Shown here: positions 8,493 through 21,038 of the stretch, piece by piece | Layout: every line of letters begins with the position of its first letter | How positions within the stretch are numbered: position 1 is the first letter of the stretch | Origin: an uncultured Allomuricauda sp. | GTDB taxonomy: Bacteria > Bacteroidota > Bacteroidia > Flavobacteriales > Flavobacteriaceae | Length of the DNA stretch: 64,000 nt | Reading direction: 5' to 3' | Assembly (NCBI GenBank): GCA_965117065.1 | Contig: OZ220751.1 | Coordinates: forward strand, 1,789,807 to 1,853,806 | Made by a program: the position numbers and the translations under genes | The notes under the pieces: model-generated | The model's input: the letters and a program-made list of their open reading frames with translations, nothing else | Databases searched by the model: none | Told to the model about the DNA's origin: nothing

Positions 8493-10874
8493 ATGAAAAA
8501 TACCTTTTTGGCCATTGTGCTTTTAATCTCTTCCATGGGATTTTCCCAAACGGGAATCATTAAAGGAATTGTTCTGGACAAACAATCGGAAAGTCCATTG
8601 GAGGGCGCCACCATAGAGCTTTTGAACATGGAAATTGCCACTGGTGTAATCACAGATTTTGACGGTCAATTTACCTTAAAGAATGTTCCAATTGGCAGGC
8701 AAAGTATCCGGATAAGCTATATAGGGTTCGAGGATACATTTGTTCCCAATATTGAGGTTACCACTGGAAAAGATGTGGTGCTCAACATTACTTTAAGGGA
8801 AAGTTTCAACGCGCTAAAGGAAGTCGTGGTTACTTCAAATTCCAATTTGGACAAACCGAGAAACAAAATGGCAACGGTTTCTGCACGGCAATTTGGGATA
8901 GAGGAAGTGGGCAGGTTTTCTGGAGGTCGGGGAGACATTGGAAGATTGGCTGCTAATTTTGCCGGCGTTTCAGCTCCTGATGACAGTAGAAACGATATCA
9001 TTATTCGTGGAAATTCACCAACGGGCCTACTCTGGAGAATAGAAGGAATACCTGTACCCAATCCCAATCACTATTCCTCCGCAGGCACAACTGGTGGCCC
9101 TGTATCTGCCTTGAATCCAAACATGCTCAAAAATTCGGATTTCATTACCTCAGCATTTCCAGCCGAATATGGCAATGCCATAGGTGGAGTTTTCGATATT
9201 GGTTTGCGAAATGGAAATACAGATGACTACGAATTTGCAGCCCAAGTTGGTGCATTTTCAGGTGTGGAGGCCACAGGAGAAGGTCCTTTGGGCAGTAAAG
9301 GTTCTTTTTTGGTTGCTGGAAGGTATTCACTCGTGGGTTTAATTGGGTCTGCCGGGGCGGGAACCTCTGCTAACCCAAATTATGGAGACTTCTCTTTTAA
9401 TCTCAACTTTGGTAAGGGAAAACTTGGCAGCCTATCCCTTTTTGGAATCGGTGGCACCTCCGATATTGACTTCTTGGGGGATAGCATCGAGGCGGATGAT
9501 CTATTTGCTGCAGAAGATGAAGATGCTTATGTAGAATCTGGCTTTGGGGTTATCGGGGTTAAACATACACTTCCGTTTGGAAAAAAATCTTATTTGAGAA
9601 CAGTGGTAGGTTATTCTACTTCATCCAGTAAGTATACCGCAGACCGCTATTTTGAAAAGGATACGCCGCAGGAAACCATTTTGTTATATACCAAGGATGA
9701 TGAAACGGAAAATCGCCTTACATTCTCTACCTTGTTCAATACTAAAATCAACAACAAAATAACATTTAGGACAGGGTTACAGTACGAAAACTTGTCCTTG
9801 GATTATAGCAATCAAGATCGAGAAGAACAAGCTGATTTAGATGGTGACGGATTCTCAGACCTTGTCACCCTAATAGATATGGACGAAAGTCTAGCTCTTC
9901 TTCAACCCTTTGCCCAGGGCCAATTTAGACTATCTAAGAAACTCACACTAAATACGGGCGTACATGGATTGTATAGTAACTTAAACAAGCAATTTGTATT
10001 TGAACCACGAGCCGGACTCAGTTTTGAAGCCAATGACAACCATAGGTTCAGCTTGGGGTATGGCATTCACTCCCAAAATATTCCAACTCCCATTCTATTT
10101 CTAAACGAGGATATTAATGGCAATCCTGTGCAAACCAACAGGGATTTGGAGTTTGTTAAAAGCGCACATTACGTTTTTGGATATGATGTAAAACTGGGAG
10201 ACAAGTGGCGGGCAAAACTAGAAGCTTATTACCAAGATATAGACAATGTCCCTGTTGATTCGTTTTCCTCAAGCTATTCAACCTTGACCGAAGGAGCCGA
10301 TTTCGGATTTAGTACGGATGCAGTATCCTTGGTCAATCAGGGTACAGCATACAATCAAGGAGTTGAGCTAACTTTAGAGAAATTCTTTAGTCAAGATTAT
10401 TACTTGTTGCTCACCTCCTCTTTTTATCAAAGTAAGTACACGGGTAGTGATACTATTGAACGGAACTCGCCATTTAACAATGGCCAAGTAATCAATCTAC
10501 TTGCAGGTAAGGAATTTGCTATAGGAAAATCTAGGAAAAACAAGTTTTTTGTAGATACACGGGCCACCTATTCAGGCGGGAGATACTATACGCCAATAGA
10601 TCTGGAAACTTCAAGGAATATGGGGTATGAAGTATTGTTTGATAATCTAGCCTATAGCCAACAATACGATAGCTATTTCAGGTGGGATGTGAAGTTAGGT
10701 CTTAAAATAAACAGTAAGGGTAAAAAACAATCGCATCAATTTTACGTGGACATGCAGAACCTAACTAATAAAAACAACATCTTTTCCAGAAGGTATAATA
10801 GACTAACCAACAACATTGATCGCGAAGACCAGATTGGTTTCTTTCCGGATTTTGGTTACCGATTTCAATTCTAG
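8493..10874 (+). CDS. TonB-dependent outer-membrane receptor with N-terminal carboxypeptidase-regulatory-like domain
   Basis: 793 aa: signal peptide, then CarbopepD_reg-like region (GIIKGIVLD...GATIELLN), plug and barrel, with a terminal aromatic residue (…YRFQF). Confidence 0.85.
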   Translation: MKNTFLAIVLLISSMGFSQTGIIKGIVLDKQSESPLEGATIELLNMEIATGVITDFDGQFTLKNVPIGRQSIRISYIGFEDTFVPNIEVTTGKDVVLNITLRESFNALKEVVVTSNSNLDKPRNKMATVSARQFGIEEVGRFSGGRGDIGRLAANFAGVSAPDDSRNDIIIRGNSPTGLLWRIEGIPVPNPNHYSSAGTTGGPVSALNPNMLKNSDFITSAFPAEYGNAIGGVFDIGLRNGNTDDYEFAAQVGAFSGVEATGEGPLGSKGSFLVAGRYSLVGLIGSAGAGTSANPNYGDFSFNLNFGKGKLGSLSLFGIGGTSDIDFLGDSIEADDLFAAEDEDAYVESGFGVIGVKHTLPFGKKSYLRTVVGYSTSSSKYTADRYFEKDTPQETILLYTKDDETENRLTFSTLFNTKINNKITFRTGLQYENLSLDYSNQDREEQADLDGDGFSDLVTLIDMDESLALLQPFAQGQFRLSKKLTLNTGVHGLYSNLNKQFVFEPRAGLSFEANDNHRFSLGYGIHSQNIPTPILFLNEDINGNPVQTNRDLEFVKSAHYVFGYDVKLGDKWRAKLEAYYQDIDNVPVDSFSSSYSTLTEGADFGFSTDAVSLVNQGTAYNQGVELTLEKFFSQDYYLLLTSSFYQSKYTGSDTIERNSPFNNGQVINLLAGKEFAIGKSRKNKFFVDTRATYSGGRYYTPIDLETSRNMGYEVLFDNLAYSQQYDSYFRWDVKLGLKINSKGKKQSHQFYVDMQNLTNKNNIFSRRYNRLTNNIDREDQIGFFPDFGYRFQF

Positions 10875-10895
10875 ACAAGAATCAGCCCATTTTGC

Positions 10896-11441
10896 ATGAA
10901 AAAAATAAGTCTTATTTTACTAGCTTTAGTTATTGTTATAATTACTGTTGTTCTAGTGCGAAATACAGAATCAGGCCCAAATTTTTTAGATGCTCAATTT
11001 TCGGAAATTGTGGATTACATCCCCCAACGTGGTCACAAAAACCAAAAAATTTCGAAAGGGGATGTGGCTTGGCACATAGATCATAGCCTTAAGGCTATAA
11101 ATAGAATCTGCGAATCTCTGGAGCGCTCTGATCCCAATAAATTTAGCTCGAGTTTTAGTTTATCAAGAATTTTTGTGTTTACCTCGGGGATTATTCCCCG
11201 AGGTGTTGCACAATCCCCCAAATCCATAAGGCCGCCCAAGGATATAAATACGGACAGTCTGTACTTGCAGCTTGAAGAAGCCAGGAAAAACCTTAAAAAA
11301 ATAGAAAGCTTGGATGCCAATGCACATTTTAGACATCCCTATTTTAAATTGATCAACAAAGAGCAAACCAAACGATTTTTAAAAATCCATACGGAGCATC
11401 ATTTAAAAATCATAAGGGATATTCTAAAAAACTCAAGTTGA
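10896..11441 (+). CDS. Hypothetical membrane-anchored protein, possibly DinB/YfiT-like (DUF1569-type) metal-binding helical bundle
   Basis: 181 aa with an N-terminal TM helix and His motifs WHIDHSL and HTEHHLK. Confidence 0.3.
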   Translation: MKKISLILLALVIVIITVVLVRNTESGPNFLDAQFSEIVDYIPQRGHKNQKISKGDVAWHIDHSLKAINRICESLERSDPNKFSSSFSLSRIFVFTSGIIPRGVAQSPKSIRPPKDINTDSLYLQLEEARKNLKKIESLDANAHFRHPYFKLINKEQTKRFLKIHTEHHLKIIRDILKNSS

Positions 11442-11509
11442 TTCAAAAATTGAATAACCCCCTTGACATTGTTCCACAAATCCCTACATTGTTTTCAAAT
11501 TAATACTAT

Positions 11510-12622
11510 ATGACTGGAATGTGGTATCAAATAAAAAACATTGAGACAGTTGACTCACCTTCTGTGGTTGTTTATAAGGAACATCTTCAATTTAATATTC
11601 GCGAAATGCTATCCAAAGTTGGGGGCAATTCCCAAAGACTGATGCCTCATGTAAAGACCAATAAAATGCCTAGGGTAATGCAATTGCTATTGGATGCCAG
11701 TATTACCAAATTTAAATCCTCCACCATTTCTGAAGCAGAAATTGCGGCAGAAGCTGGTGCAAAATCCGTTCTCATTGCGCATCAGCTGGTCGGCCCCAAG
11801 GTGGATCGCTTCCTTTCGTTGATTTCTCATTTTCCAAACACTTCCTTCTCCACAATTGTGGACTGCATGGACACTGCGGACTTTTTGAATGAAAAAGCGA
11901 GTTCCCTTGGCATGCAACTGAAAATTTACCTCGACATCAACAATGGCATGAATCGTTCCGGCATTTGTGTTGGAAACGACCTAAGCGAACTTGTAAAATT
12001 TGTCATCGATGCTAAAGCTTTGAATTTTAGTGGATTTCATGTGTACGATGGACATTTGCGCGATACAGATTTCTCCATAAGAAATGAAAAAATAGAAAAT
12101 GGATTTCTTGAGGTATCCCAGCTTTTCGAAACCTTAAAAGAAGTGCATCCCAAAATCGAGATGATTTGTGGTGGCACCCCGTCATTCACCTCCCATTTAC
12201 TGAAGAAGAGCAGAATTACCAGTCCGGGCACTTGTGTGTTCTGGGATTGGGGATATTCCGAAAAACTCCAGGAACAAAACTTCAAATATGCTGCCGTTTT
12301 GGTAACCCGAATTATCTCCAAACCAACTGAAGGAATAGTGACCGTAGACTTAGGACATAAATCCGTAGCGCCGGAAAATCCAATCGACAAAAGAGTAAGA
12401 TTTCTCAATTTGGACAACTACGAACTGCTTTCCCAAAGCGAGGAACACGGCGTCATTAAAGTGGAAAACTGGAAAGAGTTAAAGGTAGGGGACATTCTAT
12501 ATGGCATTCCCTATCATATTTGTCCAACCATAAACCTTCACGATGAAGTCTCTGTTATTGAAAATGGGCAAAAAGTGGATGTCTGGGAAATCACTGCCAG
12601 AAAACGCAGGATTCAGTTCTAA
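11510..12622 (+). CDS. PLP-dependent D-TA/DSD1-family enzyme (alanine-racemase-N-domain fold; D-threonine aldolase/D-serine dehydratase-like)
   Basis: 370 aa with the PHVKTNKMP lysine motif and overall DSD1-family layout. Confidence 0.6.
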   Translation: MTGMWYQIKNIETVDSPSVVVYKEHLQFNIREMLSKVGGNSQRLMPHVKTNKMPRVMQLLLDASITKFKSSTISEAEIAAEAGAKSVLIAHQLVGPKVDRFLSLISHFPNTSFSTIVDCMDTADFLNEKASSLGMQLKIYLDINNGMNRSGICVGNDLSELVKFVIDAKALNFSGFHVYDGHLRDTDFSIRNEKIENGFLEVSQLFETLKEVHPKIEMICGGTPSFTSHLLKKSRITSPGTCVFWDWGYSEKLQEQNFKYAAVLVTRIISKPTEGIVTVDLGHKSVAPENPIDKRVRFLNLDNYELLSQSEEHGVIKVENWKELKVGDILYGIPYHICPTINLHDEVSVIENGQKVDVWEITARKRRIQF

Positions 12623-14321: not shown

Positions 14322-15644
14322 ATGAAGCGATTTCTACTATCTGGACTTTTCATGCTTATTGCGGGTAATTTTCTTGCGGCACAGGAGGTTTCCTTTGAAG
14401 AGTATGATCTGGACAATGGCCTGCACGTAATTTTGCATCAGGACAATAGCGCTCCCGTGGTAACCACAGCGGTTATGTACCATGTGGGCTCCAAAGATGA
14501 GGACCCTCAAAAAACGGGTTTTGCCCATTTTTTTGAACATTTGTTGTTTGAAGGCACCAAAAACATTGACCGTGGTGAATGGGGTAAAATAGTCTCCTCG
14601 AATGGTGGAAGCGGAAATGCAAACACTTTTTTGGACCGAACATATTACTACGAAACCTTCCCATCCAACAGTTTGGAAACAGGATTATGGTTAGAATCGG
14701 AACGCTTGATGCATCCCATCATTGGACAAGTAGGTGTAGACACCCAAAAAGAGGTGGTACAAGAAGAACGGAGATTACGGGTGGACAATTCACCATATGG
14801 TGCATTTTTTGAGGTGCTCCTAAAAAATCTGTATACTGAACATCCCTACAAATGGGCTGTAATTGGGTCTTTGGACCATTTGGCCAGCGCAACCTTGGAT
14901 GATTTCAAAAATTTCAACCAAACCTATTATGTGCCCAACAATGCGGTTTTGGTGGTAGCAGGGGATATTGAGCCTCAAAAGACCAAAAAAATGATATCTG
15001 ATTATTTTGGCCCCATTCCCAAGGGTGCGGAAATCCAACGAAGAACCGTGGTGGAAAGTCCTATTATAAATACTCGAAAAGCCACTTACCACGACCCAAA
15101 TATTCAGATTCCGGCCATTTTGCTGGCCTATAGAACTCCGGGTCAGGCTGAGAGGGATGCCTATGTAATTGATATGATTTCCACTTACCTCAGTGATGGA
15201 GCAAGCTCTAAACTCTATAAAAAGTTGGTGGACGAGAAAAAGATGGCCCTTCAAATTTTTTCAGTGCCGATAAGTGCAGAAGATTATAGCTCTTATGTGG
15301 TAGGCGGGTTGCCTGTTGGTGAGAATTCAATCCAGGATATCAAAAATGAAATTGATGGCGAGATTCTTAAAATACAATCTGAGTTGATCTCCGAGAAAGA
15401 CTACCAAAAGCTTCAAAACAAGTTTGAAAACAATTTTGTAAACGCCAATAGCGGAGTACAAGGGATTGCCAGTTCCCTTGCGACCAATTATATGTTGAAG
15501 GACAACACCAACTTGATTAACACGGAGATTGACATTTATCGCTCTATAACCCGGGAAGAAATCATGGAAGTGGCCAAAAAGTACTTAAAGGTGAACCAAC
15601 GGGTTGAGTTGGAGTATTTACCAGAACAAAAAGAAGCCAATTAA
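14322..15644 (+). CDS. M16-family zinc peptidase (pitrilysin-like, active subunit)
   Basis: 440 aa with signal peptide and the inverted zinc motif HFFEHLLFEGT (HxxEH). Confidence 0.85.
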   Translation: MKRFLLSGLFMLIAGNFLAAQEVSFEEYDLDNGLHVILHQDNSAPVVTTAVMYHVGSKDEDPQKTGFAHFFEHLLFEGTKNIDRGEWGKIVSSNGGSGNANTFLDRTYYYETFPSNSLETGLWLESERLMHPIIGQVGVDTQKEVVQEERRLRVDNSPYGAFFEVLLKNLYTEHPYKWAVIGSLDHLASATLDDFKNFNQTYYVPNNAVLVVAGDIEPQKTKKMISDYFGPIPKGAEIQRRTVVESPIINTRKATYHDPNIQIPAILLAYRTPGQAERDAYVIDMISTYLSDGASSKLYKKLVDEKKMALQIFSVPISAEDYSSYVVGGLPVGENSIQDIKNEIDGEILKIQSELISEKDYQKLQNKFENNFVNANSGVQGIASSLATNYMLKDNTNLINTEIDIYRSITREEIMEVAKKYLKVNQRVELEYLPEQKEAN

Positions 15645-15645
15645 G

Positions 15646-17718
15646 ATGAAAAAGTATATCATTATTTCTGTACTATCCCTTTTTGTTGCAGTATCACATG
15701 CCCAAATTGATCGTAGTAAACAACCCAAACCCGGACCCGCTCCGGAAATTAATTTAAAGGAACCTGCCCGCTTTGAACTTAAGAACGGGCTTAAGGTCAT
15801 GGTGGTGGAAAACCACAAGTTACCTAGAGTTTCAATGCAGCTAATGATTGACAACCCTCCTATTTTACAGGGGAATAAAGCCGGGGTTTCAGATTTAACT
15901 TCCAGCCTATTGGGAAAAGGGTCCAAAAATATGGCCAAGGAAGATTTTTATGAAGAAGTAGATTTTTTGGGGGCTTCCATTAATATTGGAGATCAAGGTG
16001 CATCAGCAAGCTGCTTGTCCAAATACTTCCCCAGAATCCTGGAGTTGATGGCAGATGCCGCCCTAAACCCCAACTTTACCCAAGAAGAGTTTGACAAGGA
16101 AAAAGATCGCATTCTAACGGGTATAAAATCTGAGGAAAAGGACGTCTCCGCCATTGCAACACGTGTACAACTGGCTTTGGCCTACGGTAAAAGCCACCCT
16201 TATGGTGAAATTACTTCCGAAACAACGGTAAACAATGTCACCTTGGCTGATGTAGAACAGCACTACCGCTCCTATTTTGTGCCGGCCAACGCTTATTTGG
16301 TCGTCATTGGCGACGTTGAGTTTGACAAAGTACAGGAATTGGTTACTACTCAATTTACACCGTGGTCCAAGGCCACTCCACCCTCCTATAGTTATTCCAC
16401 CCCAACGGATGTGCAGTACAATCAGATAAATTTTGTCGACGTTCCCAACGCTGTACAGTCAGAAATTGCGGTGCAAAACATCACTAACCTAAAAATGAAG
16501 GATGGGGATTACTTGCCTGCTCTTCTGGCCAATAGAATTTTAGGCGGTGGTTCACAAGCAAGGCTATACATGAATCTCCGTGAAGACAAGGGGTACACCT
16601 ATGGTTCTTATTCCGGAATACGGGCAAATAAGTATAGCCCTATGCGTTTTAATGCTTATGCCCAAGTAAGAAATATGGTCACAGACAGTTCGGTGGTCCA
16701 AATTCTAAAAGAGATTGATGGCATTGTGAACGAAGCTGTTACCGAAGAGGAATTAACCAATGCTAAAGCCAAGTATGCGGGTAGTTTTGTAATGGCATTG
16801 GAAAATCCAGAAACCGTGGCCAATTATGCCTTAAATATAGAAACTGAGGGTTTACCCAAGGACTTTTATAAAGCCTATTTAGAACGTATAGATGCTGTTA
16901 CCATTGCAGACGTACAACAAGCGGCACAAAAGTACTTTTCAACCTCCAATGCCCGGGTGGTAGTTACGGGAAAAGGAAGCGAAGTCCTCGAAAACCTTGA
17001 AAAGGTGACTTTTAAGGATAGAAAAATCCCTGTTTTGTATTATGACAAACATGCTAGTAAAACAGAAAAACCAGATTACTCCGCACCAATCCCTGAAGGC
17101 GTTACTGTTCAATCCATTTTGGAGAACTATATGAGTGCCATAGGAGGAAAGGAAAAATTAGAAGGTGTGCTGTCTTATGCCATGACCGCTGAAGCAGAAA
17201 TGCAGGGTATGAAGTTGGAGCTGGAAATGAAGAAAACAACCAAACACCAATTCATGCAAGACATTAAAGTGATGGGAAACTCTGTTCAAAAACAAGTATT
17301 GGATGGAGAAAAAGGCTATGCCACAGCCCAAGGTCAGCGTAAAGACCTTACTCCAGAAGAAATAGAACGAATAAAAGAGGAATCAGCGGCATTTCCAGAG
17401 CTAAACTATCTCCTAGCTGGTAATTTAGTCCTTGAAGGCATAGAAGCAATTGGAGACAAAAAAGCATACAAGCTCAAGGTTACCGAAAAAAAATCTTGTT
17501 TTTATGATGTTGAATCTGGGCTTAAACTCCAGGTTGTTAATATTGAAGATGTGCAGGGCCAACAAATGATCAACACCCTTGCCTTTGATGATTATCAGGA
17601 AGTATCCGGAATCAAATTTCCATTTAAAATGACCCAGACTATGGGGCCACAAAACTTTGAGTTTGTGGTAAAGGAAGTTAAAGTGAACGAAGGGGTTACA
17701 GCATCCGATTTTGAATGA
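15646..17718 (+). CDS. M16-family peptidase (long, likely non-catalytic partner subunit)
   Basis: The ORF begins at 15604, but the signal-peptide Met (MKKYIIISVLSLFVAVSHAQ) is at 15646, immediately after the upstream stop. Peptidase_M16 and M16_C domains without an intact HxxEH. Confidence 0.8.
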   Translation: MKKYIIISVLSLFVAVSHAQIDRSKQPKPGPAPEINLKEPARFELKNGLKVMVVENHKLPRVSMQLMIDNPPILQGNKAGVSDLTSSLLGKGSKNMAKEDFYEEVDFLGASINIGDQGASASCLSKYFPRILELMADAALNPNFTQEEFDKEKDRILTGIKSEEKDVSAIATRVQLALAYGKSHPYGEITSETTVNNVTLADVEQHYRSYFVPANAYLVVIGDVEFDKVQELVTTQFTPWSKATPPSYSYSTPTDVQYNQINFVDVPNAVQSEIAVQNITNLKMKDGDYLPALLANRILGGGSQARLYMNLREDKGYTYGSYSGIRANKYSPMRFNAYAQVRNMVTDSSVVQILKEIDGIVNEAVTEEELTNAKAKYAGSFVMALENPETVANYALNIETEGLPKDFYKAYLERIDAVTIADVQQAAQKYFSTSNARVVVTGKGSEVLENLEKVTFKDRKIPVLYYDKHASKTEKPDYSAPIPEGVTVQSILENYMSAIGGKEKLEGVLSYAMTAEAEMQGMKLELEMKKTTKHQFMQDIKVMGNSVQKQVLDGEKGYATAQGQRKDLTPEEIERIKEESAAFPELNYLLAGNLVLEGIEAIGDKKAYKLKVTEKKSCFYDVESGLKLQVVNIEDVQGQQMINTLAFDDYQEVSGIKFPFKMTQTMGPQNFEFVVKEVKVNEGVTASDFE

Positions 17719-17742
17719 AACTTATCAAACCAATTAATTGAT

Positions 17743-17780
17743 AAAGGCGCTTCTTTTAAGGAGCGTCTTTTTTATTTTGA
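17743..17780 (+). terminator. Rho-independent terminator after the M16 peptidase operon
   Basis: AAAGGCGCTTC-ttttaa-GGAGCGTCTTT (11-bp stem with two G-U pairs) followed by TTTTTTATTTT. Confidence 0.6.
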
Positions 17781-17821
17781 TTTGCATTATCCTTAATTTT
17801 GCAACGCAAATCAACCAACAC

Positions 17822-18196
17822 GTGAAACGGTTCGCCGCGCACATTTTTGTTCTCCTCTACCTCCTGGCAATGGTTAGGCCTGTTATCCCTTTGGCAGAGT
17901 ACATTATCTATGAAGATTACATTGCGGAGTTTCTCTGTATCAACAAAGACAAAACAGAATTGCAGTGTAACGGAAAATGTTATTTAATGCAGCGTCTTTC
18001 CGAGCAAAATGAGGAGAAGAAGCAAAATCTTCCGAAAATTGCTTTAGAGGAGTACCCAATAGGTTTTGTGGAACTTGCATTCTTTTCTTCGGATACAATT
18101 GAACATCTTCCGTTTCAAAACGATTTTGACTATCACAACCATTACACTTATTTATTCTGCACTTACAATTTTCATCCACCCAGTAACCTTTCTTAG
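17822..18196 (+). CDS. Hypothetical membrane-anchored Cys/His-rich protein (start uncertain: TTG 17738, GTG 17822 or ATG 17870)
   Basis: The ORF-track TTG start at 17738 overlaps the upstream terminator. The downstream part has an N-terminal TM helix plus CINKDKTELQCNGKCY and HLPFQNDFDYHNHYTYLFCTYNFHP. Confidence 0.35.
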   Translation: MKRFAAHIFVLLYLLAMVRPVIPLAEYIIYEDYIAEFLCINKDKTELQCNGKCYLMQRLSEQNEEKKQNLPKIALEEYPIGFVELAFFSSDTIEHLPFQNDFDYHNHYTYLFCTYNFHPPSNLS

Positions 18197-18264
18197 TTTT
18201 TACTGTTCTCAAATTTTTTTAAGGCGAAACTCATAAAATCGCCCAAACTTCAATTTAAAACCGG

Positions 18265-19284
18265 ATGAAAAAATATATCCCGGCCCTATTTCTAGTGGCC
18301 ACAATAGCATTTCATGCACAAGAAAATAATAATCAATCTCAAAAATGGTCTGCAGGAAGACCCGATGGTCATGCACCAATTTCTGTAATGGGAGACCACA
18401 TGCACGGTAAAGGGGAATGGATGTTCTCTTACCGCTACATGTATATGAACATGGATGAACTTAAAATGGGAAGCAATAATGCAACCACGGCTGACGCTTT
18501 GGCCAACTATATGGTAACTCCCACTAGCATGCCCATGAACATGCATATGTTGGGTACCATGTTCGCCCCAAGTGATAAGATAACCCTAATGGTTATGCTC
18601 AACCATTTGAGTATGGAAATGGACCATCTCACTCGGATGAGTGGTACATTCACTACAAAAACTAGCGGTTTTGGAGATGTACAATTAGCACTTATGTACA
18701 AATTCTTCAATAAAAACCAACAGAGCTTACATGGTCAGATTGGGTTTTCAATTCCAACTGGAAGCATTACCCAAAGTGATGTTACACCGGCATCTGCTCC
18801 CAACGAAACGGAATTACCTTATCCAATGCAGCTGGGCAGCGGAACCTTTGACCCCAACATTGCCCTAACCTACCTAGGGCAAACAACCTCCATTTCTTGG
18901 GGAAGTCAGATAAAAGGCGTTTTTCGTCTAGGCGAAAATGATAGGGATTTCCGTTACGGAAACCGGTATAGTCTAAATAACTGGTTAGCCCTAAAAGCAG
19001 CCAAATGGATAAGCTTTTCGGCTCGACTGGAAGGTTTGATCATTGGAGAACTCGAGGGGGCCGACCCTAATTTGAACCCTATGATGGTCATAACTGCAGA
19101 TACTGCTAACTCTGGTGGGACTTATATGAATGGCGGTCTGGGTTTCAACATTTATGTACCCAATGGGGCTTTGAAAAACCTTAGGTTGGGATTTGAGTTT
19201 GCCGCCCCCTTACATCAAGATCTTGATGGGGTTCAGCTCAAAACTAAGGAAACCCTGACTCTGGGAGCACAGTATTCATTCTAA
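18265..19284 (+). CDS. Small outer-membrane beta-barrel protein (transporter / MetA-pathway-like family) with Met/His-rich N-terminal region
   Basis: 339 aa with signal peptide, alternating beta-strand pattern and a terminal ...LGAQYSF. Met/His clusters: HMHGKGEWM, MPMNMHMLGTM, MVMLNHLSMEMDHLTRM. Confidence 0.55.
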   Translation: MKKYIPALFLVATIAFHAQENNNQSQKWSAGRPDGHAPISVMGDHMHGKGEWMFSYRYMYMNMDELKMGSNNATTADALANYMVTPTSMPMNMHMLGTMFAPSDKITLMVMLNHLSMEMDHLTRMSGTFTTKTSGFGDVQLALMYKFFNKNQQSLHGQIGFSIPTGSITQSDVTPASAPNETELPYPMQLGSGTFDPNIALTYLGQTTSISWGSQIKGVFRLGENDRDFRYGNRYSLNNWLALKAAKWISFSARLEGLIIGELEGADPNLNPMMVITADTANSGGTYMNGGLGFNIYVPNGALKNLRLGFEFAAPLHQDLDGVQLKTKETLTLGAQYSF

Positions 19285-19327
19285 CATAACCCCCAGGGAG
19301 TTCTTCTCCCTGGGTAAATTTCTTCTT

Positions 19328-20062
19328 ATGACCAAAAGACAATGGATTCAACGCAATAGAAAATGGCATCGTTATTTAGGGATCATTTTGGGTGTTCAGT
19401 TCTTTTTGTGGACCCTTGGGGGTCTATATTTTAGCTGGACCAGTATTGATGAAATTCGAGGAGATCACATCAAACAAAAGGACCCTCTACTTTCAGCAAA
19501 GCTTTCACTGGCCCCCCCGTCCATCTTTTTAAGTAAACTACATGGCCAGGACAGTATTGTTTCGCTGAAACTGTGTTCTATCTTGGGCAAGCCAACATAC
19601 AGACTAGTTGTTCAGAATAACGGAAGTACTTCTGTAATGCTATTCAATGCAGAAAATGGGTCATTCAGACCTCCTCTGGGCAAGAAAGAGAGTATTGCAG
19701 TAGCTAAAGCAAAACTTGTTGGGTCAGCTCCCGTTACCGAAGCAGAATATTTAACAGAAACTGGAGAGCACCATGAATATAGGGGCAGACCCTTACCTGC
19801 CTACGCCATAACATTTAGTGAGCCCGTTAACACAACTGCATATGTATCCGTTGAACACGGCAACATACAAACCGTTAGAAGCAACCAATGGCGTGCGTTC
19901 GATTTTTTATGGATGCTGCACACTATGGATTACAAGGGCAGGGACAATTTTAATAATCTAGTCCTAAGAGCATTTGCACTTTTTGGACTGTTTACCATAC
20001 TTTCGGGTTTTAGTTTGTATATTTTTACCTCTAAATTGTTTAGCAAAAAAGCATCAAAATGA
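19328..20062 (+). CDS. PepSY-associated TM-helix protein (FoxB-like family)
   Basis: 244 aa: WHRYLGIILGVQFFLWTLGGLYFSW, then a periplasmic region and a C-terminal TM helix. Confidence 0.7.
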   Translation: MTKRQWIQRNRKWHRYLGIILGVQFFLWTLGGLYFSWTSIDEIRGDHIKQKDPLLSAKLSLAPPSIFLSKLHGQDSIVSLKLCSILGKPTYRLVVQNNGSTSVMLFNAENGSFRPPLGKKESIAVAKAKLVGSAPVTEAEYLTETGEHHEYRGRPLPAYAITFSEPVNTTAYVSVEHGNIQTVRSNQWRAFDFLWMLHTMDYKGRDNFNNLVLRAFALFGLFTILSGFSLYIFTSKLFSKKASK

Positions 20063-20481
20063 GAAAAATTTTGTCTGTGTTATTCTTGGTATTGATTACC
20101 ATCAGTTCTTGCAAGGAAAAAGAGAAAAAAGAGGAGGGGCCTACGCAAATGGAAACAGTTATGGAGATTCATGACGAAGTGATGCCCAAAATGGGTACTT
20201 TAGGCAAACTGGTAGGTGAACTCAAAAGTAAGGTGGACACCACAGAAATGGGGAAAAAATACGAAGCTTCCATGAAGGATTTGCAAGCGGCCAACAAATC
20301 CATGATGGATTGGATGATGAACTTTGGCAATCGCTTTGATTCTGACGAAATATTGGATGGCAAAGCCCTAAGTGAGGAGAAGCAAAAATGGCTGGATGAG
20401 GAAGAAATAAAGGTGAAGGATCTCAGGAATCAAATCAATTCCAGTATTGAAAAGGCAGAAGCCCTACTAGCCAAAGAATAG
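20059..20481 (+). CDS. Met-rich lipoprotein, hypothetical
   Basis: 140 aa with lipobox LITISSC. Met-rich (METVMEIHDEVMPKM, SMMDWMMNF). An ATGA start/stop overlap with the PepSY gene suggests translational coupling. Confidence 0.45.
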   Translation: MRKILSVLFLVLITISSCKEKEKKEEGPTQMETVMEIHDEVMPKMGTLGKLVGELKSKVDTTEMGKKYEASMKDLQAANKSMMDWMMNFGNRFDSDEILDGKALSEEKQKWLDEEEIKVKDLRNQINSSIEKAEALLAKE

Positions 20482-20483
20482 GG

Positions 20484-21038
20484 CTATTTTTTCCAGCGAA
20501 GTGTTTCCATAATCCTTCTAACGTCTGTTTGGAGATAGACCGCGGCAGGAAGAATGGAATCGTAATTGGGTTTGGCATAAAAATAGAGAGACCCGGTAAC
20601 AAAGTGGTTTAAGCTATCGGTAACATAAAACTGGGATTGTGACGCTGCATTCCCACTTACCTCATAAAACATTCCATAAACACCATCTTTTGCATTGACA
20701 AAGGGTTGCTCCACAATATTATCCGCTTTGACCACATGCTCATAGGACAGCTTTTGGGCATCCGACAAAAGGGTGTTCAAATCATTATCTACCTGTTTGT
20801 ATGTTAAGTAAATGGAAGCATTCATTTCTGGGTAGTCCAACGTCAAGGCATTTGCATTCTCCAATTTGGTTTTTGCCGTTTCGTTTATCTCAAATGCATA
20901 ATTTTTTGTGCTTAATTTACCATAAGTTGATTTCGGATAATCTAACCGCAATTGAGCGTTGGGCTTGGGCAACACCTCATCCTTACATCCAAATAACAAA
21001 CCAACTAATGCGATATATACCAAGCTTTTATGCTTCAT
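20484..21038 (-). CDS. gldD: Gliding motility protein GldD
   Basis: 184-aa lipoprotein (LLFGC lipobox) immediately downstream of gldE, in the mutY-ssb-gldE-gldD order described for Flavobacterium johnsoniae. I did not verify the assignment by sequence similarity. Confidence 0.6.
   Translation of the reverse strand: MKHKSLVYIALVGLLFGCKDEVLPKPNAQLRLDYPKSTYGKLSTKNYAFEINETAKTKLENANALTLDYPEMNASIYLTYKQVDNDLNTLLSDAQKLSYEHVVKADNIVEQPFVNAKDGVYGMFYEVSGNAASQSQFYVTDSLNHFVTGSLYFYAKPNYDSILPAAVYLQTDVRRIMETLRWKK

Follow-up and report, generated by a model that had tools for sequence, protein, structure and literature searches.

A variable gene island of Flavobacteriaceae built around a small exported Cys-motif protein and a Met/His-rich outer-membrane barrel, with a possible role in copper handling

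Four adjacent genes of an uncultured Allomuricauda sp. raise the question of which metal, if any, they carry across the cell envelope, and which of them belong together. They are located in a 64,000-nucleotide stretch of contig OZ220751.1 (positions 1,789,807 to 1,853,806; the window), in which region 17738-20481 contains four intact and consecutive plus-strand open reading frames (ORFs) in the ORF listing, here named g1, g2 (the barrel), g3, and g4. An earlier reading of the letters alone (the sequence-only reading) had described the four consecutive plus-strand genes, which are present, and had proposed that they form one envelope system for handling a copper-like metal. We consider it most likely, with a probability of about 0.45, that the locus serves the passage of copper, or of a different soft thiophilic metal, through the envelope, probably for acquisition, and that g1 controls it in cis. 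We hold this view tentatively because we infer the identity of the metal, the direction of transport, and ribosome arrest, and the regulation likewise. The coordinates of the features are listed in Table 1.

The gene content was compared among 80 genomic loci that encode relatives of the barrel with 61-81% identity, come from at least 15 genera of Flavobacteriaceae, and were searched with all the proteins of the window. The closest barrel relatives, at 81% identity, belong to Flagellimonas/Allomuricauda species. g1 is positioned directly upstream of the barrel in all 80 loci, g4 is present in 58, and g3, a short PepSY_TM protein, in 20 (20-21 of 81). The pairing of g1 with a barrel recurs for g1 relatives with 32-33% identity (L081 and L085). 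Because the pair is constant while g4 and g3 are not, the g1-barrel pair is the core of the locus. The four-gene set is one configuration of a variable island, and g3 and g4 are optional accessory genes, so the co-occurrence does not bear out the idea of a single four-gene envelope system. The remark that no TonB-dependent receptor is attached holds for this window and fails as a trait of the family, since about 18 of 81 loci contain a receptor of 716-800 residues inside the cluster, 15 of them directly after the barrel on the plus strand. In addition, a full-length PepSY_TM protein of about 420 residues is found in the cluster in 9 of 81 loci, and a DJ-1/PfpI lipoprotein in 15 of 81.

The constant partner of g1 is the barrel. 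Met makes up 6.8% of its residues, the highest proportion among the 38 long ORFs of the window (background 2.2%), and 18.8% of residues 30-125 (binomial p = 3e-12). With 8.2% Met in mature g4 (p = 4e-4), the Met-rich motifs noted earlier in the barrel and the lipoprotein are well past chance. The Met/His motifs are also the most conserved part of the barrel. In 14 homologues with 63-81% identity and in two distant ones with 37-42% identity, the invariant positions are D34, H36, M42, D44, H45, H47, M53, S55, R57, M59, M61, M63, M89, M91, M93, H94, M95, M99, M111, and M119; among the 14 closer homologues, this also holds for D120 and H121. Non-conservation of the motifs had been named as an outcome that would speak against metal handling; they are invariant down to 37% identity.

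The motifs are spread over a short N-terminal stretch and the barrel's first three long beta-strands. In strands 52-69, 91-100, and 106-123, the invariant Met occupy alternate positions, on a face shared with S55, R57, T107, H121, and T123. The opposite face carries W52, F54, Y56, Y58, Y60, I106, L108, V110, and L112. Because the Met alternate on the face of invariant polar residues, about 13 of them are predicted to line the barrel lumen on three neighbouring strands. The Met/His motifs compared earlier with those of CusF, PcoC, and CTR proteins are real and conserved, but the region is not a floppy N-terminal one of the PcoB/CTR type. The Met-rich part of PcoB is a disordered N-terminal extension, whereas in the g2 barrel the Met sit within strands. 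PcoB/CopB (PDB: 7pge) otherwise resembles the g2 barrel as a small, copper-linked outer-membrane barrel with a Met/His-rich sequence. Membership of the barrel in the PcoB/CopB family was rejected, as there is no match to the CopB Pfam family (PF05275), and the PcoB fold match is only generic.

The predicted fold of the barrel belongs to the COG4313/FapF class and has 12 strands like 4rl8. A search of the PDB with the barrel sequence profile gave no match. The proposed PF13557 assignment passes marginally, with 23.1 bits against a cut-off of 22 (E = 8.8e-5), and covers residues 113-263 only. The COG4313/PF13557 channels (Pput2725, PDB: 4rl8) and FapF differ from the barrel in sequence, with identities of only 14-16% in addition to the marginal Pfam score. 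These prototypes have no Met/His ladders and are tied to hydrophobic substrates or amyloid secretion, not to metals. It is very improbable that the barrel is merely one more channel of the COG4313 type, with Met that line a greasy lumen for organic compounds that are hydrophobic or contain sulfur, and that the four genes have no common function. Such a channel would agree with the closest solved structure, the Pseudomonas putida COG4313 channel 4rl8, for which uptake of hydrophobic compounds was proposed, with the dispensability of g3 and g4 in many genomes, and with the terminator-like hairpin that parts the barrel from g3. However, the invariant His and Asp residues D34, H36, D44, H45, H47, H94, D120, and H121 are interleaved with the Met, and the His/Met/Asp-rich insertion in the homologue from L085 points to metal ligation. 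Furthermore, the Cys-motif gene upstream and the neighbouring HMA, CopD, and PepSY genes would be left unexplained. The L085 barrel (L085:2566-3651, plus strand) has 37% identity, and an EMDMDMDHSHHHH loop is inserted where the other barrels have the conserved MEMDH loop. The insertion at this place, LTHYMEDTEMDMDMDHSHHHH, has 19 residues and reads as a textbook Met/His/Asp metal-binding stretch.

The g1 gene had been read from a TTG codon at 17738. This start is wrong, since the terminator of the upstream M16 peptidase gene and the -7 promoter box TAATTTTG fall inside that longer ORF. Because of this, and because the homologues from 80 genomes have their start where the GTG codon lies, the latter is the true start of g1; many database entries are 124 residues long. 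In the related loci, the start codon of g1 is TTG in 50 cases, GTG in 13, CTG in 10, and ATG in 7. A -7 box matching TAATTTTG is found about 20 nucleotides ahead of g1 in nearly all 80 loci, and its similarity to the known consensus suggests a promoter role. Since the M16 terminator and the -7 box precede the GTG codon, g1 is predicted to be the first cistron of its own transcription unit. The protein begins with MKR and a hydrophobic stretch of about 20 residues (Kyte-Doolittle mean of up to 2.4 over residues 3-25), and residues 1-25 form an export signal. Database annotations often place the start of g1 16 codons too far downstream, so that the export signal is lost. For example, the database entry P0192, which matches this window, is annotated with 108 residues from Met17 and lacks the basic N-terminal residues and some of the export signal.

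Beyond its export signal, g1 carries two invariant elements, a C-x9-C-x3-C motif and a Pro-Pro pair close to the stop codon. The Cys motif is kept in 147 of the best 150 representatives of the g1 family, and the pair is located within the last 15 residues in 140 of them. C53 and the Pro-Pro pair lie 66 residues apart in most homologues (65 of 83; range 65-71) and 63-72 residues apart in the wider family. Four residues follow the pair in 59 of the 83, and the residue before it is His in 67 and Arg in 10. The linker of about 40 residues between a YPIGF-like patch and the Pro-Pro pair is not conserved in sequence but is fixed in length. Other conserved residues are P20, I34, N41, and those of the YPIGF-like patch. 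The description of g1 as rich in Cys and His stands for Cys, which is enriched (p = 0.006), and not for His, which is short of significance (p = 0.09). The quoted His-rich tail is unconserved apart from the His that precedes the invariant Pro-Pro pair. A profile search of 1.84 billion representative proteins placed the g1 family in 6,271 clusters (50% identity) at E <= 1e-3. A database search returned 970 family proteins, among which every named entry is a 'hypothetical protein'. Scans against Pfam and NCBIfam gave no meaningful match for g1, and none of the 51 family members scanned matches any family.

The anatomy of g1 is that of a cis-acting nascent-chain metal sensor of the CruR and CutF kind, not of the Cys/His-rich structural protein of the sequence-only reading. 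CruR of Bordetella is an exported 145-residue DUF2946 protein. Its CxxC motif is separated by a conserved spacing of 45 residues from a RAPP motif, after which only three residues remain (PMC9426467). It heads the cruR-crtA-crpH operon (bp2923-bfrG-bp2921 in Bordetella pertussis), which encodes a TonB-dependent copper importer and a PepSY_TM protein, and both stalling and Rho-dependent termination are controlled by copper sensing through the nascent CruR chain (PMC9426467, PMC12914433, PMC13038864). In vitro experiments have demonstrated arrest at RAPP, and copper-related RAPP/RGPP upstream ORFs were reported as not found in a survey of Bacteroidota (PMC12992588). The Allomuricauda locus and its relatives share with this operon a small exported first-gene product with a Cys motif and a near-stop Pro-Pro pair at a fixed distance, an outer-membrane transporter gene after a non-coding gap, and a PepSY_TM gene in the cluster, with an identical order of g1, receptor, and PepSY_TM in relatives such as L070, L074, and L076. 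In contrast, g1 has no DUF2946 match, its motifs are C-x9-C-x3-C and (F)(H/R)PP rather than CxxC and RAPP, and their spacing is 66 instead of 45 residues. The constant partner is a 12-strand Met-lined barrel and not a TonB-dependent transporter, and the host belongs to Bacteroidota. The locus thus mirrors the cruR-crtA-crpH operon with different protein families, which makes the earlier suggestion of an undescribed pathway less apt (PMC9426467, PMC12914433, PMC13038864).

In Rhodobacter, the downstream cutO is controlled via a stem-loop by CutF, a protein that combines a signal peptide with a CxxxC motif and a proline motif at its C-terminus (PMC9973294; bioRxiv 10.1101/2025.02.05.636593). Among 5,334 CutF-like proteins, 19% are from Bacteroidota, and TonB-type proteins are common neighbours (PMC9973294). 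By the rules used for that set, g1 is CutF-like: it has 124 residues (<150), a Pro-Pro pair four residues from its end (limit: last 15 residues), and an export signal, and the barrel gene lies 68 nucleotides downstream on the same strand (<1,000 nucleotides). The CutF-CutO-CutG system of Rhodobacter capsulatus and the locus described here are alike in the CxxxC motif, the export signal, the C-terminal proline motif, and the stem-loop before the regulated gene. They differ in that the gene after g1 encodes an outer-membrane channel and not a multicopper oxidase, and homology of g1 to CutF is undemonstrated. Another difference is that Bacteroidetes initiate translation without Shine-Dalgarno pairing, and therefore the stem-loop cannot act by shielding such a site. 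Taken together, g1 has every element of the CruR/CutF design, with different motifs.

The same features bear on the rather unlikely alternative that g1 is a stable membrane-anchored periplasmic Cys protein, such as a metallochaperone or a thiol-disulfide protein, or one that takes a physical part in assembling or gating the barrel or receptor encoded after it. The strict adjacency of g1 to genes of outer-membrane proteins suits a protein partner as well as it suits a leader, and the conserved P20, I34, N41, and YPIGF-like patch suggest a folded core. The lack of a DUF2946 match and the position of the intergenic hairpin, out of reach of a ribosome at the Pro-Pro codons, are also in its favour. 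Against it stand the roughly 40 residues that vary in sequence and are fixed in length, and the Pro-Pro pair that is always 1-4 residues from the stop. The mostly non-ATG starts fit a low-abundance product, and the first position, behind a promoter of its own, is invariably taken by g1. The non-conserved linker of fixed length, Pro-Pro near the stop, weak starts, and first-gene position are the features that define upstream ORFs of the arrest type (PMC9973294, PMC12992588).

If g1 acts as a leader, the spacer between it and the barrel is where control may be exerted. A hairpin is found at the equivalent spacer position in 62 of 64 intergenic regions, with arms of differing sequence and a mean z of -1.7 in single-sequence folds, and may have a regulatory function. 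In addition, the minimum-free-energy fold of positions 18150-18300 pairs the g1 F-H-P codons with the barrel start region (z = -3.8). A check of the intergenic region for the signature of a Rho-utilisation site gave 18.6% C and 12.5% G. The box AAACTTCAAT (window 18245-18254) is positioned immediately 3' of the intergenic hairpin, about 10-20 nucleotides before the barrel start codon, and is conserved at the equivalent place in the Flagellimonas-like loci L001-L021. Downstream of the barrel stop codon, a strong hairpin is present in 76 of 82 cases. The one in the window may be a leaky terminator or a stabiliser between the core pair and g3-g4, and the likely layout is a g1-barrel core transcript, with g3 and g4 expressed via read-through.

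Genes of the g1 type precede various transporter genes. In Kordia (L070 and L076), a second g1 copy (g1b) is located between the barrel and a TonB-dependent receptor, and PepSY_TM then follows. In Aquimarina (L068), one copy heads the receptor and another heads the barrel. The order g1b, receptor, PepSY_TM is found in L068, L070, and L076, and L023 has the order g1, receptor, barrel. Distant members of the family with 31-36% identity head another PF13557-like barrel in L081 and L085, P0470 heads a receptor (L083/L084), and P0506 (L086/L087) heads a YtkA-domain lipoprotein and a Plug-domain protein. The neighbours in L086/L087 include NosD/NosF/NosY, a CopD-like gene, and a haem-copper oxidase gene. 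L086:1-3419 and 9381-12354 form a denitrification island with NosD, NosF, NosY, a CopD-like gene, an Rrf2 regulator, a COX1-family oxidase, and cytochrome c. Because a distant g1-type gene sits in this island, the arrangement suggests that the leader family also serves the copper supply to nitrous-oxide reductase. The copper-linked neighbours in relatives comprise CopD, YtkA, NosDFY, and HMA-domain proteins, the last of which are encoded next to the cluster in L070, L076, and L080.

An uptake role is favoured because the barrel shares its leader type with receptors, which are importers. The opposite role, that of a copper or silver defence module with a barrel like PcoB/CopB and a sequestering g4, induced by excess metal as CutF induces the CutO oxidase, is unlikely. 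In its favour, Met-rich envelope proteins are classic for Cus/Pco/Cop resistance, and CutF, the closer analogue by its CxxxC motif, turns on a detoxifying enzyme (PMC9973294). Against it, leaders of the g1 type head importing TonB-dependent receptors inside the same clusters. None of the 81 loci showed an RND pump, a P-type ATPase, or a multicopper oxidase, and the COG4313/FapF fold class of the barrel, with its generic PcoB match and lack of a CopB Pfam match, also speaks against defence.

Another possibility, which is quite improbable, is that the cluster handles iron or a different metal or metallophore (Zn, Ni, or Co), with PepSY_TM as a ferric-siderophore reductase like FoxB and the barrel as an auxiliary channel. 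Met thioether ladders and Cys motifs are poor ligands of Fe(III), and the metal-linked neighbours are HMA, CopD, YtkA, and Nos genes, not iron genes of the Fur type. Furthermore, PepSY_TM is optional (26% of loci), whereas the Met-rich barrel is constant. In favour of iron are the receptors of related loci, which score best with the siderophore-receptor model TIGR01783 (144-148 bits, under the cut-off of 223.5), and the characterised PepSY_TM proteins, which are mostly ferric reductases (PMC13038864). Some CutF-like proteins are tied to Ni or Co (PMC9973294).

The accessory protein g3 passes the PF03929 check with 33.1 bits against a cut-off of 28.8, although it is aligned only to positions 171-292 of the 295 in the model, its C-terminal part. 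Hydrophobic segments are present only at the N- and C-terminal ends and are read as two transmembrane helices. Invariant His residues are located near the membrane (H14 and H198) and in the periplasmic part (H148/H149). The PF03929 match and the invariant His in or next to transmembrane helices are shared with the PepSY_TM reductases FoxB, FpvG, and CrpH. In contrast to these, g3 is half-sized and has only two transmembrane helices, and haem binding would need a dimer. Moreover, the short form co-exists with a full-length PepSY_TM protein in some relatives (L074). Relatives in which PepSY_TM adjoins the receptor resemble the CrtA-CrpH copper arrangement (PMC12914433, PMC13038864).

The g4 gene is coupled to g3 by the ATGA overlap described earlier, which is seen at 20059-20062. 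Its product has the lipobox ISSC (LITISS-C18), the Cys of which is invariant in alignments, and the motifs M..VM..HDEVMPKM and MMxWM, which are conserved across genera. Cu(I) sites of the CusF type are built from His, Met, and Trp ligands. The AlphaFold2 model of g4 is a high-confidence three-helix bundle with a predicted local distance difference test score (pLDDT) of 87.5, and a Foldseek comparison of this model with the PDB returned only generic helical bundles (best E = 0.3). Scans of g4 against Pfam and NCBIfam gave no meaningful match, and MntC and bHLH-MYC_N were disregarded, with scores far under the cut-offs. The 1,021 homologues of g4 have no family assignment and are frequently mis-named 'Viral A-type inclusion protein'. 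The DJ-1/PfpI lipoprotein of about 290 residues, encoded on the plus strand (L004:10207-11076, L027:7065-7946, and L074:11297-12199), is always located just before g4.

The conserved Met/His barrel, the Met/His/Trp motifs of g4, and PepSY_TM fit envelope metal handling, most likely of copper; to this extent the sequence-only reading is retained. In the proposed mechanism, the barrel would be a passive 12-strand outer-membrane channel, in which the N-terminal His/Asp/Met segment and the Met ladders on three strands would line up Cu(I)-type ligands as a relay along the lumen. If g1 works as CruR and CutF do, it would be a cis-acting sensor and not a structural partner. Its C-x9-C-x3-C motif would be exposed during translation and export, and metal bound there would change the pause of the ribosome at the His/Arg-Pro-Pro site 66 residues downstream. 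The paused ribosome would alter the intergenic RNA structure or transcription termination and hence the level of barrel expression. A ribosome paused on HPP would, in addition, free the barrel start codon from its pairing with the F-H-P codons. g3 would be a haem-dependent periplasmic metal reductase, like FoxB (ferrioxamine) and as proposed for CrpH (copper), and g4 a Met/His/Trp periplasmic carrier.

Several points weigh against copper acquisition under the control of g1. A PepSY_TM protein together with a TonB-dependent receptor is first of all an iron-siderophore signature, and COG4313 channels are thought to carry hydrophobic molecules. The lumen orientation of the Met was deduced from the periodicity of the strands, and the underlying model is only moderately confident (pLDDT 75). 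The resemblance of g1 to CruR and CutF is anatomical, with homology undemonstrated, and neither g1 nor the 51 family members match DUF2946 (PF11162) even at E <= 10. The pause motif is (F)(H/R)PP, not RAPP or RGPP, and its arrest capacity is putative; the fixed spacing and the invariant Pro-Pro pair could also belong to a small folded domain. The intergenic hairpin is located about 40 nucleotides past the Pro-Pro codons, beyond the reach of a ribosome paused there, and RNAalifold found no consensus structure or covariation in 14 spacers, the variable hairpin arms of which could not be aligned by MAFFT. An equivalent F-H-P/AUG duplex at z < -1.5 is found in only 43% of 77 loci, and the pairing is partly forced by the codons, since FH (UUYCAY) is complementary to MK (AUGAAR). 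For these two reasons, the pairing was rejected as a universal switch. The literature search found no experimental or expression data for any member of these families, and a paper on the MliR iron regulon of Bizionia (PMC9478572) does not concern this cluster.

A more specific proposal, which we regard as doubtful, is that g1 represents a Bacteroidota-wide class of metal-sensing, non-DUF2946 arrest peptides (at least 6,271 clusters) that gate outer-membrane importers through a C-x9-C-x3-C sensor and an (H/R)PP site 66 residues apart, and that its constant partner is a TonB-less Cu(I) channel with a lumen ladder of about 13 Met on three strands. What would be new is the combination of the CruR/CutF logic and a PepSY_TM partner from unannotated families of Bacteroidota, joined to a new kind of channel.

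Table 1. Features of the g1-barrel locus, in window coordinates
Feature	Position	Strand	Description
Intrinsic terminator of the M16 gene	17743..17770	+	Stem of 12 bp with a run of T after it; 5' limit of the unit
-7 promoter box TAATTTTG, Bacteroidetes type	17794..17801	+	Perfect match to the consensus TAnnTTTG; about 20 nucleotides before the g1 start
g1	17822..18196	+	124 residues, GTG start; proposed cis-acting metal-sensing upstream ORF
C-x9-C-x3-C motif (C39, C49, C53)	17936..17980	+	Proposed metal-binding site; invariant in alignments
F-H-P-P codons	18170..18181	+	Invariant Pro-Pro at 18176-18181 (P119-P120), four codons before the stop; proposed ribosome pause/arrest site
Stem-loop (GGCGA...TCGCC)	18223..18243	+	Within the 68-nucleotide g1-barrel intergenic region
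GGAUGAAAA around the barrel start codon	18263..18271	+	Predicted pairing with UUUUCAUCC (18169-18177, F-H-P codons of g1)
g2 (barrel)	18265..19284	+	339 residues; predicted 12-strand outer-membrane beta-barrel, COG4313/FapF fold class
Met/His region, residues 34-121	18364..18627	+	DGHAPIxVMGDHxH, MFSYRYMxMxM, MPMxMHMxGxM, M111, M119-D-H121
GC-rich hairpin directly 3' of the barrel stop	19292..19314	+	9-bp stem with 7 GC pairs; 13 nucleotides before g3
g3	19328..20062	+	Short PepSY_TM protein of 244 residues; PF03929 match
g4	20059..20481	+	Lipoprotein of 140 residues; predicted three-helix bundle

Upstream of g1, a pair of M16 peptidase genes occupies positions 14322-17718 of the plus strand. 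Their best NCBIfam matches are YfmH and YfmF, which are linked to the 5-aminopentanol modification of EF-P. The scores of 106 and 91 bits are far under the respective cut-offs of 250 and 285 bits, and the resemblance is probably a generic M16 similarity. The pair is syntenic with the cluster in 48 of 80 loci. A functional tie of YfmH/YfmF to the Pro-Pro pause was rejected, given the sub-cut-off scores and synteny at the level of the lineage only. The minus-strand genes gldD, gldE, ssb, and mutY are located downstream of g4, and these surroundings assign the window to a flavobacterium that glides and resembles Flagellimonas. An Rfam scan over positions 17500-20700 returned only two matches, both at chance level.

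The surroundings of the pair differ among relatives. In two Flagellimonas genomes (L003:7866-9977 and L006), a minus-strand receptor is located between the PepSY_TM gene and g4, and among the NCBIfam models it scores best with TIGR01778, that of the TonB-dependent copper receptor, at 234 bits under a cut-off of 472. In Kordia (L070:4735-5130 and L076:4939-5352, plus strand), an HMA-domain lipoprotein (Pfam E = 8.5e-12) is encoded directly upstream of g1 and has the unusual metal motif MTCxxxC, not MxCxxC. An HMA-MauE fusion is located between g4 and the TonB-dependent receptor in L080 (2561-3289). The Winogradskyella-type loci L052, L053, L055, L056, L059, and L065 contain the g1-barrel pair without g3 and g4. 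In loci of this type, a gene resembling an OxyR-type LysR regulator is found on the opposite strand 1-5 kb downstream of the barrel (9 loci), and a Dps-like gene near the pair in five, both named from their sequences. OxyR-type regulators and Dps are encoded by oxidative-stress and iron-storage genes.

The crossing of the outer membrane by ionic copper is poorly understood, and the known routes are the TonB-dependent OprC and CrtA and unspecific porins. If the interpretation given here is correct, a TonB-independent Met-lined channel, conserved in marine Flavobacteriaceae, would be a new copper route. It would matter for the supply of copper to cytochrome oxidases and nitrous-oxide reductase in abundant marine heterotrophs. 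Furthermore, the CruR/CutF principle would, through the large family of proteins that end in an HPP/RPP tail, reach a phylum that initiates translation without Shine-Dalgarno pairing.

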